A stretch of 64,000 nucleotides of DNA from an uncultured bacterium (GTDB lineage Bacteria > Chloroflexota > UBA5177 > JANWHV01): assembly GCA_963827235.1 (NCBI GenBank), contig CAWHAE010000018.1:384001-448000 (forward strand), given 5' to 3'. Each line of letters starts with the position of its first letter. Within the stretch, counting starts at the first letter, position 1. The notes beneath the pieces were generated by a model. That model was not told where the DNA came from and did no database searches. It saw only the letters and a list, made by a program, of their open reading frames with translations. Below are positions 4,934-9,907 of this stretch, one piece after another. A program made the translations under genes and the position numbers.

Positions 4934-5170
4934 CTACGCCTCGACCAGGCAGTTGCAGGCCGCGCACGAGAGCTTCGGGAAGTTGAAGGTCAGCGAACCT
5001 CCGCAGAACGGGCAAGGATCGGTGACCACCATCTCCTCGACTTCCCAGGGCTGATTGACATGTTGGGCATAGAGGCGCGCATACAAGGAAAGCAGTGCCT
5101 GTTCGCGTTCTTCACGTGCGGCAGTCAGTTTGCCAGGTTCGCGACCATCTTGCGATTGAGGAGCCGTCAC
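4934..5170 (-). CDS. small zinc-ribbon protein (78 aa)
   Basis: C-terminal CPFC-x12-CAAC, purine-rich RBS before the GTG, fills the gap between genes. Confidence 0.65.
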   Translation of the reverse strand: MTAPQSQDGREPGKLTAAREEREQALLSLYARLYAQHVNQPWEVEEMVVTDPCPFCGGSLTFNFPKLSCAACNCLVEA

Positions 5171-5236
5171 CTCGGTCCTCCTCTCCGGGCCTGAGCGGCG
5201 GGTCGAAGGCCCCGGATCCCGCCGCGCAAATCCCGC

Positions 5237-6904
5237 TCAGTGCCCAATCGCGAGCTGCACGACCTTCACGACCAGGAGCAGAACAGCGATCACGAGGTAC
5301 GCTTGCAACGTCAGCATAGCGGCCTTGGTGCCCAGGGACCACACCGGTCTGGGCAGCGTGTGCAGGGGCGGCATGCGCCAGGTATGCTTGTCTTCTGCTT
5401 CCACCGGTGCGGCCACGTCACGGCCGGTCCGGCGCAGGGTGAGGGCGCCGAGCACCACCAACCCAAGCAACAACGAGACGCCAAGCCACGCCGCCAGCCG
5501 GCCGGCGTCCAGCGCCGGGAACATGGTGGAGGCAGCGAGAATCAGCGAGAGCATAACCAGCACACCGACAATCGTGCAGGCCAGGATATTGACCCACACT
5601 CTGTTCACCCAGGGGCCAAGCACATCCTTGTCGTTGCAGAGCAGGATCAGGAACACGGTGGCGCTCGGCAGCAGTACTCCGGCAAGGGCTTGCACCGCGG
5701 TCGTCATGAGGCCGAGCGGCGCACCAGGGATGAGCACGATGCCGCCGGCGACCAGCACCAGGCCACCGTAGAGAGCGTAGAAGGCCCGCGCATCCCTCCA
5801 CGAACGATGCAGAGAATGCTTGACGCCGAAGACGTCACCGAAGGCATAGCTCGTGGACAGCGTCACTGCAGCGGCTCCGATCAGCGAGGCGTTGAGCAGC
5901 ATGATCGCGAACAGTGCACCGGTGACCGAGTTTACGTGCTGGGCCAGGGCCGTAGCCGTCGTGCCGGCGTCGGCGAACTGCCCAAACAGGGCGGTACCTT
6001 TGAAAGCGAAAGCCGTAACCACCATCAGGGCCGCGGCGCCCACGACCACCACCGCGGAGCCGATCACCGTGTCGGCACGCTCATAGGCCATCCAGCGTGG
6101 CGTCAGGCGCTTGTCGATCACGTTGGACTGCTGGAAGAACAGCTGCCAGGGCGCGACTGTCGTGCCGACAATGGCGATAATCAGCATCATCGCGGTGGAA
6201 GTCAGACCCCCATGCACGCTCGGCACGAAGGCGTCGTGCGCGATCTGGCCCGCCGCCGGGTGAACGGAGAGCGCCATGGGAATGGCCACGAAATTGGCGG
6301 CGATGAGCAGGTACATGCAGCGCTCCCAATTGCGGAAGCTACCCGTCACTGTGCTGCCAATCAGCAGCGCGACCGCCAGCGGTACGGAGATGTAGGGACT
6401 GACACCGAAGTAGGCGAGGGCAAGGCTGACGCCGATAAACTCGGTGACGATGGTCAGGAAGTTGAGCAGGAACAGGTCGCCCACCGAGAAGGCGCCCCAG
6501 AACTTGCCGAAACGCTCGAGGATCAGCCGGGCGTGCCCCACCCCGGTGACAAGGCCGAGGCGCACGACCATCTCCTGGTTCACGATCAGCACCGGAACCA
6601 GCAAGAGCAGCACCCAGAGCAGGCTGGTGCCGAAATTCTGTCCGGCCTGCGCATAGGTCGCCACGCCACCGGCGTCATTGTCGCCGACCATCACGATCAG
6701 GCCGGGGCCCATCACGGCGAGCAGCGTGAGCAGGCGCGCCCTCCAGGTTGTGCGAGGAGCGAGATCGTGTTGGCGCACGGTGCCTAGCGCACCGCGAATG
6801 TCGCCGCGGTGCGCATCGTCAAGCACCGCGTCGCGGCGTCGCTCCACGTCCGGCAGCGCCACCGCGCCCTGGCCCCCCGTTAGGGTGAGATCTTGTGTCG
6901 TCAT
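5237..6904 (-). CDS. NRAMP-family divalent metal transporter, NRMT (Mg2+) type
   Basis: GPGLIVMVGDNDAGG in TM1 (DAGG replaces DPGN) and GTTVAPW in TM6; downstream of an M-box riboswitch. Confidence 0.9.
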   Translation of the reverse strand: MTTQDLTLTGGQGAVALPDVERRRDAVLDDAHRGDIRGALGTVRQHDLAPRTTWRARLLTLLAVMGPGLIVMVGDNDAGGVATYAQAGQNFGTSLLWVLLLLVPVLIVNQEMVVRLGLVTGVGHARLILERFGKFWGAFSVGDLFLLNFLTIVTEFIGVSLALAYFGVSPYISVPLAVALLIGSTVTGSFRNWERCMYLLIAANFVAIPMALSVHPAAGQIAHDAFVPSVHGGLTSTAMMLIIAIVGTTVAPWQLFFQQSNVIDKRLTPRWMAYERADTVIGSAVVVVGAAALMVVTAFAFKGTALFGQFADAGTTATALAQHVNSVTGALFAIMLLNASLIGAAAVTLSTSYAFGDVFGVKHSLHRSWRDARAFYALYGGLVLVAGGIVLIPGAPLGLMTTAVQALAGVLLPSATVFLILLCNDKDVLGPWVNRVWVNILACTIVGVLVMLSLILAASTMFPALDAGRLAAWLGVSLLLGLVVLGALTLRRTGRDVAAPVEAEDKHTWRMPPLHTLPRPVWSLGTKAAMLTLQAYLVIAVLLLVVKVVQLAIGH

Positions 6905-6974
6905 CGGTGTACCTTCCTACGGTGCAGGAGTCGCTGGACCGTGGTTCGGGAGGTCACCGGTGACACCAGCTACC

Positions 6975-7091
6975 TCACTTGGGCCGCGGTTCCGCGACGA
7001 GACGTGGACTGCCGGAGGCCGACTGCCATTCACCCAGCATCCCATTGGGTGGAGGCTCCGCCGGCTTGGCTGTGCCATCACTGACGCTCAT
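6975..7091 (-). CDS. putative short leader ORF 2 (38 aa, MSVSDGTAKPAEPPPNGMLGEWQSASGSPRLVAEPRPK)
   Basis: Manual translation; AGAGGA RBS upstream; shares GSPR..VA with leader ORF 1; ends 70 nt before the NRAMP ATG. Confidence 0.4.
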   Translation of the reverse strand: MSVSDGTAKPAEPPPNGMLGEWQSASGSPRLVAEPRPK

Positions 7092-7126
7092 CGTGTGTCC
7101 TCTGCTTGTCTACAGGCCAGGAGCGC

Positions 7127-7366
7127 CTACGCGGCGGCCCTGGTGTGGGCGGTATGGCATTCTTCGCCATGCAATGCGCGGCCGGCATCATGCTCATCGA
7201 TCCAGCGAGCCTCGAGCCGGCACTTGCCGCACGCATCGACGACGGGAATCCATTGGGCAACCATGGCGCGCCTCTCCCTGGGCCACGATTCCCTGACGGC
7301 ACTGGATGGCTCCGGCCGATCCGGCGCGGCAGTGCGGCGGGGGACAGAGAAAACGCGAATGCTCAT
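7127..7366 (-). CDS. small hypothetical protein (79 aa)
   Basis: Strong GGGAGGTG RBS; first ORF after the leader terminator; globular-looking core AMVAQWIPVVDACGKCRLEARWI. Confidence 0.6.
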   Translation of the reverse strand: MSIRVFSVPRRTAAPDRPEPSSAVRESWPRERRAMVAQWIPVVDACGKCRLEARWIDEHDAGRALHGEECHTAHTRAAA

Positions 7367-7396
7367 GGCGCACCTCCCTGGATGGACTCCCCACCC

Positions 7397-7429
7397 AAAA
7401 GAAAACCTCTCGGCTCACTCGCCGAGAGG
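7397..7429 (-). terminator. intrinsic terminator (attenuator) in the leader
   Basis: Minus strand reads CCTCTCGGC-GAGTGA-GCCGAGAGG-TTTTCTTTT: a perfect 9-bp stem plus U-tract. Confidence 0.85.
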
Positions 7430-7456
7430 CACGTGCGTCACCCGCCTGAACGATCC

Positions 7457-7546
7457 TCAGGCGATATGCGCGTGCGAAAGACGGCGAGCGGCCCCCATAA
7501 CGTGACTCAAGGACGCGACAAAGATACGTGGACTACCAGCGTCCAT
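7457..7546 (-). CDS. putative leader peptide 1 (29 aa, MDAGSPRIFVASLSHVMGAARRLSHAHIA)
   Basis: Manual translation; GAGAGGGGGTGA SD 9 nt before the ATG; lies between the M-box aptamer and the terminator. Confidence 0.6.
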   Translation of the reverse strand: MDAGSPRIFVASLSHVMGAARRLSHAHIA

Positions 7547-7662
7547 AGAAGGCGCTCACCCCCTCTCACCTGCGGCTACCTTGGGCGTCCAGGCCAGTCT
7601 GCACGATGGCGCACCACGGGCCGGGATCGGCAACTGTAGGCTTAAGCTAGACGGTCAACTCA

Positions 7663-7824
7663 CTCCACGTAAGAGTTTTGGCCACTGCATACCGTAAGAC
7701 GGTCACCCGTCCAGCCACTTTGAGTCAACCCTTAAGCCGGGAAGACCTGGTCTGAGGTTTTGGCGTCTCTCGACGTTTCTCCTCAGTAGCCTGTGTGTAT
7801 GCAGCCACCTCACCTAACGAGGAG
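7663..7824 (-). ncRNA. M-box (ykoK leader) Mg2+ riboswitch aptamer
   Basis: Minus strand CTCCTCGTTAGGTGAGG...ACGTCGAGAGACGCCAA...TTAAGG...AAAGTGGCTGGAC...GCAGTGGCCAAAACTCTTACGTGGAG matches the conserved blocks of the ykoK leader; upstream of a metal transporter. Confidence 0.92.
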
Positions 7825-7867
7825 ACCGAACTCCAGGTTGTGCTGCTACATCCCTGAAATCACGTGC

Positions 7868-7896
7868 ATAGTACGTCCCTTGTGCTACCCTGTCAA
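7868..7896 (-). promoter_or_regulatory. sigma70/SigA promoter for the riboswitch transcript
   Basis: TTGACA-17 bp-TACTAT on the minus strand, about 40 nt upstream of the aptamer. Confidence 0.8.
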
Positions 7897-8013
7897 GGGC
7901 CTGGCGGGGTGTTTTTTTGCGCTTTCGCGCGCCCAAGCTGCGGCAGAGACATACGCGCAATCTCCCCTTCAACGTCTGCACGTGTCGGGGCCTCTGGCGA
8001 AGGAGTACAGACG

Positions 8014-9333
8014 GTGAGCGACGGGGCACAGGCGCAACCTCCCTCGCTCTCGGTGCGCCGGATTATCGGCCGGCCGCTCGTCGATCGGGACGGCGAACGT
8101 CTCGGTGCGGTCTGCGATGTGGTTGTCCGGCTCACCGAGAAAGAGGATCCGCTCGTCACGGGCCTCGCCGTGCGCATCGGACAGCACGCGGTGTTCGTGC
8201 CTGTGGCCGACGTCACCCCGCTCGCCACGCATGCCGTGAGGCTGACGGGGATTCGGCTGGATGTGCGCACCTTCGAGCGCCGGCCCCGCGAGATCCTGCT
8301 CGCCGGCGATCTACTCGGCCATCATGTGATCAGCATCGCGGACGCGCGCCTCGTGCGGGTGCGGGACGTCGAGCTGGCCTACCGGCAGCAGTCCCTCCGT
8401 GCGGTGGCCGTGGCCGTGGAGGGATCACCCCTCGTGGAACGGCTCCTGCACGGCAGATTTGGCGCCGAGCATGCTCGGACCGTCCTCTCTTGGGCGGGCA
8501 TTGAGCCGCTGATGGCACACGTGCCCAGCGCTCGCTGGCATCTGCCCTTTGGCCGGCTGGCACGGCTGCATCCGGCACGGCTCGCCGATCTGGTGGAGAC
8601 GGCTTCACCTGACGAAGGCGAGGAGATTATCCGCACGGTGGGCCAGAATCGGGATCTGGAAGCAGACGTGTTCGAGGAGCTGGAGCCCCCGTACCAGGTG
8701 GCATATCTCAGCACGCGTGCCGACGCCGAGATTGCCGAGGTACTCGCCACCATGGCGCCCGACGACGCGGCCGATTTGCTGCTGCAGCTCGAGCCGGAGC
8801 GACGGCAGCGCGTCCTGGGACGCTTACCGCTGGTGACCCTGCACAAGGTACGGCTGCTGCTCGGCTACAACCCTGCCACGGCCGGCGGACTGATGAGCAC
8901 GGACTACCTGGCCGTGCCCGCGGAAATGACCGTACAACAGGCACTGGACGCTGCGCGTACGAGCAGCGTACCTCCCGGCATGGCCGAGACCGTCTATGTG
9001 GTTGACCCCGAGCACCGCCTGCTTGGCGCCTTCCTGATCGCCGAGCTGCTCCGCCGTGAGCCGGACGAAGCGATTGGAAGCGCGATGCAGTCGGCACCGA
9101 TGAGCGTTCTTCCTCAGGCGGACATTCCCGAGATCGCGCTCTCTATGACGGACTTCAACCTCACGCTCTTGCCGGTATTGGACGCTGACACACGACTGAT
9201 CGGCGTAATTGCCGTGGATGACCTGCTGGAGGTGTTGCTCCCGGAGGAATGGCGCGCACTCGTGGATCACAAGCCGCCGGTAGTCCGCGAACGGACCTCC
9301 GGGAGCACAACGGGAGAAGACACGTCGAAGTGA
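8014..9333 (+). CDS. MgtE cytosolic-domain protein (PRC barrel + MgtE_N + CBS pair, no TM domain)
   Basis: Motifs LHPARLADLVE, MAPDDAADLL, YNPATAGGLMSTDY and IGVIAVDDLLEVL; GTG 8014 with AAGGAG RBS. Confidence 0.88.
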   Translation: MSDGAQAQPPSLSVRRIIGRPLVDRDGERLGAVCDVVVRLTEKEDPLVTGLAVRIGQHAVFVPVADVTPLATHAVRLTGIRLDVRTFERRPREILLAGDLLGHHVISIADARLVRVRDVELAYRQQSLRAVAVAVEGSPLVERLLHGRFGAEHARTVLSWAGIEPLMAHVPSARWHLPFGRLARLHPARLADLVETASPDEGEEIIRTVGQNRDLEADVFEELEPPYQVAYLSTRADAEIAEVLATMAPDDAADLLLQLEPERRQRVLGRLPLVTLHKVRLLLGYNPATAGGLMSTDYLAVPAEMTVQQALDAARTSSVPPGMAETVYVVDPEHRLLGAFLIAELLRREPDEAIGSAMQSAPMSVLPQADIPEIALSMTDFNLTLLPVLDADTRLIGVIAVDDLLEVLLPEEWRALVDHKPPVVRERTSGSTTGEDTSK

Positions 9334-9415
9334 GGAGAACGGGTCGTCCTTTGCGATCCACCGGTGATAGAGCACAGGAGTTGTTGGCACCCAACCCAGG
9401 AGAAGGAGGCGCATT

Positions 9416-9907
9416 GTGCCGATGTTCACCCATCACCCGCACCCGTATATCGAACGTCGAAAACAGGAGAAGCCGCCGCAGACTGCGGACGAACATGTGG
9501 GCCTGAACGGCAAGATTGCTCTGGTCCTGACCACGGCGGTCGGCACCATGTGGTGCGCCTACGTGTTCGCTCTTCTCGCCCTGCTTGTAGTACCTCAGGC
9601 CGTGCACGGCGGTCTGCTCACCTTCGTACAGTGGGTGAGCCAGACCTTCATCCAGCTGGTCATGCTGAGCGTGATCATGGTCGGCCAGAACATCCTGGGC
9701 AGGGTTTCCGACAAGCGGGCGATACAGACCTACAACGACGCCGAGGCGGTGCTGCACGAAGCGCTGGAGATTCAGCGTCACCTGCACGAGCAGGACGAAC
9801 AGATCTTGCGTATCAAGCAACATCTCGGTGTCGTGGATACCGACGTGACGCTGCAGGGCCAACCCGCCGACGCAGCAACAGCGATACTTGCACAGCCTCA
9901 GCACTGA
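9416..9907 (+). CDS. DUF1003-like small membrane protein
   Basis: VGTMWCAYVF...WVSQTFIQLVMLSVIMVGQN pattern; AAGGAGG RBS; start may be ATG 9422. Confidence 0.8.
   Translation: MPMFTHHPHPYIERRKQEKPPQTADEHVGLNGKIALVLTTAVGTMWCAYVFALLALLVVPQAVHGGLLTFVQWVSQTFIQLVMLSVIMVGQNILGRVSDKRAIQTYNDAEAVLHEALEIQRHLHEQDEQILRIKQHLGVVDTDVTLQGQPADAATAILAQPQH

Follow-up and report, generated by a model that had tools for sequence, protein, structure and literature searches.

An M-box leader of an NRMT-type magnesium transporter gene with a short open reading frame and a predicted four-segment attenuator

Introduction

In Salmonella, the mgtA leader combines a magnesium-sensing RNA with a short leader open reading frame (ORF), MgtL, and translation selects stem-loops and governs transcription elongation. 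Attenuators of the trp type use alternative pairings among four segments (1:2, 2:3 and 3:4) and an intrinsic terminator; termination is the default when there is no translation, and read-through follows when a ribosome holds segment 1. Here we describe a leader with features of both, located in a 64,000-nt stretch of DNA from an uncultured Chloroflexota bacterium (GenBank assembly GCA_963827235.1, contig CAWHAE010000018.1, positions 384,001 to 448,000; hereafter the window). It is about 950 nt long, precedes a gene for an Nramp-related magnesium transporter (NRMT type), and carries an M-box (ykoK-type) magnesium riboswitch, a 29-codon ORF and an intrinsic terminator, in that order. All coordinates refer to the minus strand of the window unless stated otherwise.

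A riboswitch of the same family has been described in Mycobacterium tuberculosis, where, according to D'Halluin et al. (RNA 2026; PMC12810186), the pe20/rv1535 M-box has no intrinsic terminator and termination is Rho-dependent. Its platform contains a Shine-Dalgarno sequence (SD1) at the aptamer end, a pyrimidine-rich anti-SD, a second SD (SD2), and a conserved upstream ORF, uORF2 (Rv1805A), with a conserved proline at position 7; uORF2 is controlled by the M-box, and its translation was demonstrated with reporter fusions. The same paper distinguishes a 'Mn2+-type' M-box class ahead of Nramp-type genes and states that the uORF2 peptide is specific to mycobacteria. M-boxes ahead of NrmT genes are established (PLoS Genet 2014, PMC4072509).

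The leader in the window appears to be of this recently described kind, an M-box with a regulatory uORF, which RNA folding models here tie to an intrinsic terminator. As the best explanation we propose, tentatively and with somewhat less than even confidence, an NRMT leader with two sensors in series, the M-box and a four-segment leader-peptide attenuator. All of the terminator, antiterminator, helix and ribosome results given below come from such folding models and are in silico only.

The leader and its parts

The window had been interpreted previously from its letters alone (the sequence-only reading), as an M-box connected through a translated leader peptide to a transcription attenuator. 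All of the elements listed in that reading are present when rechecked on the minus strand (Table 1), and its interpretation is supported in part. The riboswitch matches the Rfam model over its full length (positions 1-169 of 169) with 119.5 bits, where the gathering score is 44, and an E value of 3.7e-26. When 6900-8050 was scanned with Rfam at permissive settings, no further family was credible. It lies in the 5' leader of the transporter gene, on the same strand, and downstream of a promoter that is the sole promoter-like site on either strand within 5000-9500 (shuffled sequences contain a mean of 0.6); transcription would start near 7861. The −35 block of this promoter is conserved in the closest related leader, that of locus L002. 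On the plus strand, 7886-7918 forms a terminator-like hairpin followed by seven T that overlaps the −35 box, and no plus-strand gene terminates there; on the minus strand this becomes an A7 tract that immediately precedes −35 and resembles an UP element.

The first real gene after the terminator encodes a 555-aa Nramp protein. Its best match among solved structures is 7qia_A (E 1.2e-56, versus about 1e-11 for MntH chains), which is the NRMT magnesium transporter of Eggerthella, EleNRMT (eLife 2022, PMC8806188). As described there, helix 1 of the NRMT binding site carries Gly in place of Asn, helix 6 carries Ala in place of Met together with a Thr, and Trp and Asn take the place of the histidines in helix 6b. 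In the alignment the corresponding signatures are DNDAGG (helix 1) and GTTVAPW...QQSN (helix 6), and both these motifs and the closeness to EleNRMT identify the protein, as judged from its sequence, as an NRMT. Many transporters (20 or more) 73–82% identical to it were seen in the homologue search.

The aptamer belongs to the same family as that of the Bacillus subtilis mgtE (ykoK) M-box, likewise precedes a magnesium-transporter gene, and would be expected to turn expression off at high magnesium. In B. subtilis, however, the terminator follows the aptamer directly and shares a strand with helix P1, whereas no terminator-like site lies between 7655 and 7546, as the sequence-only reading had noted; the first terminator in the window is about 225 nt downstream of the aptamer, behind the ORF. 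The absence of an adjoining intrinsic terminator is shared with the M. tuberculosis system, and so is the presence of an SD-preceded short ORF as the first regulated frame: uORF2 has about 25 codons and lies roughly 100 nt past its aptamer, and the leader ORF here starts 109 nt past the aptamer. Its SD (GGGGGTGA) stands 9 nt ahead of the ATG and has one mismatch relative to GGAGGTGA, for which the earlier description 'strong' is generous. The M. tuberculosis class also includes Nramp loci of the 'Mn2+-type'. The combination of an M-box with a translated leader ORF, which the sequence-only reading had suggested, thus has a published precedent, although with Rho in place of an intrinsic terminator (PMC12810186).

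There are also clear differences from M. tuberculosis. In the window the ORF is followed at once by a strong intrinsic terminator, the alternative pairings are trp-like, and no Rho site is known; no upstream pyrimidine-rich anti-SD that could pair with the aptamer 3' end or the SD was found, the anti-SD lying inside the ORF; the leader peptide is not demonstrably homologous and has its proline at position 6 rather than 7; and the phylum is a different one (Chloroflexota-like).

Table 1. Features of the NRMT leader and its gene in the window
Feature	Coordinates	Strand	Basis or remark
Sigma-70-type promoter, TTGACA-17 nt-TACTAT	7896-7868	minus	10 of 12 consensus matches
M-box (ykoK-type) magnesium riboswitch aptamer	7828-7655	minus	Rfam RF00380
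Spacer from aptamer to ORF start region	7654-7573	minus	No terminator; not conserved
Region 1, translation initiation region of the leader ORF and anti-antiterminator strand	7569-7545	minus	Pairs with 7498-7474 in the minimum-free-energy (MFE) fold; SD GGGGGUGA within 7564-7556, AUG at 7546-7544
Leader ORF (uORF), 29 codons and stop, MDAGSPRIFVASLSHVMGAARRLSHAHIA	7546-7457	minus	Open reading frame
Small hairpin UGGAC...GUCCA, then U-rich tract, just past the AUG	7545-7520	minus	Flagged as a weak terminator-like site
Region 2, inside the leader ORF, codons 17-24	7498-7474	minus	Partner of either region 1 or region 3
Region 3, antiterminator 3' strand, overlapping the 5' arm and loop of the terminator	7433-7412	minus	MFE fold of 7510-7395
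Intrinsic terminator GCCUCUCGGC/GCCGAGAGGU, 10 pairs including one G-U, 6-nt loop, tail UUUUCUUUU	7430-7396 (hairpin 7430-7405)	minus	
Gap from terminator to transporter gene, about 490 nt	7395-6905	minus	79-codon ORF 7366-7127 and 38-codon ORF 7091-6975
NRMT-type magnesium transporter gene, 555 aa	6904-5237	minus	PF01566, E 3e-72

A predicted switch between terminator and antiterminator

Folded alone, the platform (7654-7396) forms one long hairpin in which region 1 pairs with region 2 over 23 bp and the terminator is formed (z = −2.35; 2 of 200 shuffles fold equally well). The 1:2 duplex has an energy of −43.9 kcal/mol, versus −29.5 kcal/mol for the 2:3 duplex, the antiterminator. For 7500-7396 the fold with the antiterminator has −49.9 kcal/mol and the best structure that contains the terminator −47.3 kcal/mol; the terminator hairpin has −20.3 kcal/mol by itself. 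The three nested antiterminator helices exist just as the sequence-only reading had written them and constitute the MFE fold of 7510-7395 (−49.9 kcal/mol); they are a real competitor of the terminator.

Ribosomes were imitated by forbidding pairing across their footprints. Without a ribosome the probability of the terminator, P(terminator), is 1.0 and that of the 1:2 helix 0.95, and P(terminator) is likewise 1.0 with a ribosome at codons 5-6 only, in mid-ORF, on region 2, or at the stop codon. Occupation of the initiation region (7566-7531) lowers P(terminator) to 0.08 and gives P(antiterminator) of 0.91, and with a second ribosome on codons 6-15 P(terminator) is 0.03. When a 30-nt block is moved along the RNA, the terminator is lost solely with the block over 7582-7535, the stretch of the SD and AUG. 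When the terminator was kept and the upstream 224 nt shuffled, none of 150 sequences switched at the initiation position, and 3 of 40 switched at any of 11 positions.

Termination is therefore the default in the model, and read-through needs region 1 to be held while region 2 is free, a trp-like design. The sequence-only reading had correctly assigned termination to a ribosome that reaches the stop; in the model a ribosome over the final third of the ORF has the same effect. Its expectation of read-through in the absence of translation fails in the model because region 1 then takes region 2. The short ORF, the intrinsic terminator and the mutually exclusive 1:2, 2:3 and 3:4 pairings are together those of a predicted attenuator.

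The likeness to trp-type attenuators thus includes the four segments, default termination, and read-through with segment 1 held. Unlike those attenuators, the window has no tandem regulatory codons, its segment 1 is the initiation region, its stop codon comes after segment 2, and a riboswitch lies upstream. Like Salmonella mgtA with MgtL, it has a magnesium RNA and a leader ORF that would control elongation into a magnesium transporter gene; the mgtA RNA, however, is not an M-box, the Salmonella system is Rho-dependent, and MgtL is proline-rich whereas the window peptide has one proline.

The sequence-only reading had connected the aptamer to the ORF differently. At low magnesium the 3' strand of the unfolded aptamer would pair with the SD region, block translation and remove region 1, leading to the antiterminator and read-through; at high magnesium, either translation to the stop or the 1:2 helix would give the terminator. 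The polarity (on at low magnesium) is correct, and the best platform partner of the aptamer 3' strand (7680-7655) is indeed 7584-7556 (−17.4 kcal/mol), around a core in which CUCUUAC (7675-7669) is complementary to GUGAGAG (7569-7563), as had been noted. Holding all of 7584-7556 gives P(terminator) 0.13 and P(antiterminator) 0.86, but the 7-bp core alone has only −7.0 kcal/mol and does not cause a flip (P(terminator) 0.94). When the 3' strand is available, free folding retains the 1:2 helix and terminator, and the strand pairs internally. L002 does not conserve the pairing, its 3' strand being paired with a C-rich anti-SD and not with the SD; this wiring also gives the conserved ATG no necessary role and reverses the polarity of translation shown for the mycobacterial system (PMC12810186). 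We consider it decidedly unlikely. A second candidate contact, a perfect 8-bp match between the 3' strand of P1 (UACGUGGA, 7671-7664) and ORF codons 5-8 (UCCACGUA, 7532-7525) with −10.8 kcal/mol, was not used because it is absent in L002 and has a chance expectation of roughly 6% (a rough estimate).

Related leaders and their short ORFs

Related loci were obtained with one transporter scan of species-representative genomes, which returned 80. An M-box was found by nhmmer in 22 of these, 19 of them with the M-box upstream of the matched gene and three, from Streptosporangiaceae, with it ahead of a second NRMT paralogue. Rfam confirms a true M-box in each of the 13 loci rechecked, with ends 4-16 nt further downstream than those given by nhmmer. 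Together with the window these constitute a set of 23 leaders, among which L002 (Chloroflexota; transporter 78% identical) is the sole close relative; the others belong to Actinomycetota (Mycobacterium, Nocardia, Kutzneria, Streptosporangiaceae, Acidimicrobiia and others) and, in two cases, to Alicyclobacillus.

By eye, all 23 leaders have a short frame of 18-55 codons with a GGAGG-type SD and a start 83-141 nt past the nhmmer end of the aptamer, with CTG as the only possible start in three leaders of Acidimicrobiia. A fixed rule then asked for an SD 5-mer located 3-12 nt upstream of an ATG or GTG, with that start codon at +71 to +150 and 18 or more codons open behind it. Such an ORF is found in 21 of the 23, versus 568 of 4,600 dinucleotide shuffles (12%) and 2 of 23 reverse complements. 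Many of the leaders are related to one another, so the 21 are not 21 independent events; they still represent four separate lineages.

The N-termini of the leader ORFs look alike: MSPSDSPYP in Mycobacterium, MSPDGSSPARW in Kutzneria, MDSSSPGHE in Streptosporangiaceae, MDAGPSH and MDIGPSS in Alicyclobacillus, MDGASCSS in L002, and MDAGSPRIF in the window. Among nine Mycobacterium/Nocardia-type sequences the proline codon varies at its third base (CCT, CCC, CCG and CCA), and the codons around it (GAT AGT, TAT CCG) are unchanged in most of the nine. The Ser codon before Pro (within 7543-7529 in the window) is AGT in most leader ORFs, and AGT is rare in the genes of the window (6 of 109 Ser codons). 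All of codons 3-7 of the window ORF are rare (relative use 0.06-0.13) and include Ser-Pro; they and the AGT codon could reflect either a programmed slow start or a constraint at the RNA level.

We infer that the published uORF2 corresponds to the ORFs found in these loci. Whereas D'Halluin et al. state that the peptide is specific to mycobacteria, Nocardia at least has peptides clearly related to it, and ORFs in the corresponding position occur far outside these genera. Three Nocardia loci (L038, L047 and L065) and one from Kutzneria (L026) encode a leader peptide that is clearly related to the mycobacterial type, M[KS]SGDSPYPS.... In Mycobacterium/Nocardia-type leaders the short ORF is separated from the NRMT gene by another small ORF that is also conserved (50-83 aa, motif ...LTPQERANLYVSRMP.AV...), at 4657-4845 in L040 and 4639-4881 in L031, with counterparts in L038, L045, L057, L061, L063 and L070; the two tested, those of L040 and L031, have no NCBIfam family. 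The 79-aa ORF of the window occupies the same place and is unrelated to it. The three Streptosporangiaceae loci (L023, L035 and L036; about 6680-8750, minus) have two convergent NRMT paralogues, and in L035, the one in which the ORFs were read, only the second paralogue (543 aa) has the M-box and the short leader ORF MDSSSPGHE....

A classical terminator directly after the aptamer is present in only two of the 23 leaders, those of Alicyclobacillus (L012 and L018), and the short ORF follows it. This ORF has 43-55 codons and a GTG start (at about 4870-4999 in L012, and likewise in L018); in L012 it ends about 17 nt beyond the start codon of the NRMT gene and in a different frame from it, an overlap suggestive of translational coupling. 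The window is alone among the 23 in having a strong terminator after the ORF.

Comparison with L002 shows about 26-29 of 30 columns identical in the aptamer. Outside the promoter and aptamer, the platform has a single conserved island, made up of the SD, the ATG and the initial five codons; there 20-21 of 30 columns agree, versus a background of about 10. The L002 ORF (MDGAS...) begins at +112; the two frames have 28 and 29 codons, and the peptides diverge totally after residue 5, with a 13-nt indel. When the L002 aptamer is closed, CCUCCC (+43-48) pairs with GGGAGG (+93-98), and when it is open, GUGGGG of helix P1 takes CCCCAC (+46-51). In these models L002 clearly folds into the published design of aptamer strand, anti-SD and SD. 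Its start region also pairs over 14 bp with an internal stretch of its ORF, a geometry that matches the 1:2 helix of the window. An alternative frame of eight codons (GTG 7559 to TAG 7533, MSAFYGRW; MVVYGRC in L002) appears to be conserved with third-position changes, and was set aside because its start is only 2-3 nt from the SD and it is the other frame that recurs across the larger set of leaders.

A second island of similarity to L002, 7348-7320, lies downstream of the terminator (20 of 30 columns, GC-rich, TGCCGCGCCG...CGGCCG) and may be a low-complexity alignment artefact.

Proposed mechanism and alternatives

In the proposed arrangement the first sensor is a standard M-box aptamer. In the second, region 1 is the SD and AUG of the 29-codon ORF, region 2 lies inside the ORF, and regions 3 and 4 are the arms of the terminator. 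By default regions 1 and 2 would pair, regions 3 and 4 would form the terminator, and transcription would halt at about 7396. If a ribosome were on the start region and first codons while RNA polymerase copies 7430-7396, regions 2 and 3 would pair, no terminator would form, and transcription would read through to the transporter gene; a ribosome that had advanced to region 2 or the stop codon would restore termination. Low magnesium would thus be the state in which a ribosome is loaded and lingers at the start, giving expression. Two causes can be envisaged: the M-box could adopt a state that opens the start region, as has been shown for its mycobacterial relatives, and decoding could be slow across codons 3-7, which are five rare codons that include Ser-Pro. 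The small hairpin just past the AUG is possibly a pause site, which is speculative.

Several results weigh against this proposal. The first concern the step from aptamer to ORF. Before region 2 is made, the modelled probability that the SD of the window is unpaired is 0.38 when the aptamer is closed and 0.33-0.34 when the aptamer 3' strand is free, and after region 2 is made the value is 0.09 in either state; in the model the 3' strand has no effect on SD accessibility, so coupling between aptamer and ORF is unsupported in the window. Nor does a ribosome stalled at codons 5-6 cause a flip by itself, since the start region must remain occupied.

The lack of a predicted change in SD accessibility is what would be expected of two independent modules, an M-box that acts just past the aptamer (through Rho or RNA decay, for instance) and an ORF-terminator unit that is a separate attenuator reporting translation capacity, with no RNA contact to the aptamer. 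The main termination sites in M. tuberculosis lie 10-40 nt past the aptamers and upstream of uORF2 (PMC12810186), and the Alicyclobacillus leaders, with a classical terminator after the aptamer and the short ORF behind it, show that the parts can be separate. The spacer of the window, however, has a C/G ratio of about 1.0 and by this C/G profile contains no C-rich, G-poor tract of the rut type, and L002 has a direct three-way pairing of aptamer strand, anti-SD and SD. We regard separate modules as unlikely.

The second group of contrary results is comparative, and concerns the terminator. L002 has neither an intrinsic terminator nor an antiterminator, and when the pairs of the window are mapped on L002, 11 of 26 antiterminator pairs and 6 of 10 terminator pairs are retained, about as expected by chance; the 1:2 helix retains 18 of 29, for the most part because the sequence is identical rather than through compensatory changes. 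Neither conservation nor covariation of the attenuator pairings was found in this one close relative, and comparative support for the terminator part, from a single relative, is negative. Of the conservation that the sequence-only reading had called for, that of the ORF start holds in L002 and that of the terminator and antiterminator does not; in the 21 leaders that follow the fixed rule it is the position of the ORF that is shared.

The third group concerns the ORF itself, the translation of which we infer. Its GC3 is 0.59, versus 0.81 in five neighbouring genes, a value that non-coding DNA would give, and at this base composition an open frame of at least 28 codons after a given ATG has a chance of about 40% (a rough estimate). 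The codon usage, with its rare codons, fits a leader ORF whose translation rather than product matters, and fits a non-coding RNA equally well. A nhmmer profile of 16 actinobacterial start regions gives no match at 7570-7520. An N-terminal peptide profile places the window ORF 8th of 3,286 candidate starts in the window, but only when L002 is among the training sequences; without L002 the ORF is absent from 2,155 matches, and with actinobacteria alone it ranks 549th. Homology of the window ORF to the actinobacterial uORFs is accordingly not demonstrable from sequence.

These observations raise the alternative that the ORF is not translated, the conserved block being an RNA element only and the terminator either a constitutive or leaky stop or a lineage-specific addition with no switching role. 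Codon usage that is not coding-like, complete divergence of the peptides of the window and L002 after residue 5 across the 13-nt indel, a terminator that is not conserved, and the commonness of frames of this length in GC-rich DNA are all in its favor. It accounts poorly for a conserved block that is exactly SD and ATG, at a spacing common to 21 of the 23 leaders, and for the actinobacterial proline codon that varies at its third base while the flanking codons are constant in most of nine sequences. The terminator switch, moreover, maps precisely to the initiation footprint, as it does in none of the 150 shuffles, and the uORF2 of the relatives is translated in the reporter fusions described (PMC12810186). 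We consider an untranslated ORF improbable, and the least probable of the explanations weighed here.

The two-sensor leader is retained as the best explanation. We also raise a broader proposal, which is doubtful: that the short ORF is an ancient and integral part of one large class of M-box platforms (Actinomycetota, Chloroflexota and Alicyclobacillus), in which, in the window, one hairpin would integrate free Mg2+, through the aptamer, with ribosome loading and speed on a rare-codon Ser-Pro start. With read-through dependent on a ribosome parked at the initiation region, such attenuation would sense initiation and not amino-acid supply.

Other features near the leader

The gap between terminator and transporter gene has no second promoter-like site. 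Its 79-codon and 38-codon ORFs have no Pfam family and no counterpart in the related loci, and the former was rejected as a real gene, the 79-aa product matching only itself among 1.84 billion representative proteins. In tblastn searches of the 80 loci, the three small ORFs (29, 79 and 38 aa) gave only noise, and searches of 7654-7380 and 7400-6905 against the same loci with nhmmer and blastn-short found no homologous DNA outside the window.

Divergent from the leader, on the plus strand (8017-9333), is a gene for a 438-aa protein with PRC-barrel, MgtE_N and CBS domains and no MgtE membrane domain; it aligns with positions 31-253 of 450 of the mgtE model, below the cut-off. It is followed by a gene (9416-9907, plus) for a 163-aa hydrophobic protein of no clear family. 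The two could form a split or accessory magnesium-sensing pair beside the NRMT operon.

Implications

The finding in the window is real and goes beyond an ordinary M-box. Teaching usually presents M-boxes as simple terminator switches, and an M-box that acts through a translated uORF was first reported in 2026, in a system that involved Rho (PMC12810186). The window suggests that the layout of aptamer and short ORF is a general one among NRMT leaders, across three phyla or more, and that a compact four-segment switch can link the ORF to an intrinsic terminator of the ordinary kind, which would provide a Rho-independent model for how RNA and ribosome sensing of magnesium are combined. It also advises caution in annotation, as the expression platform of many M-boxes may sit 100-250 nt downstream of the aptamer.

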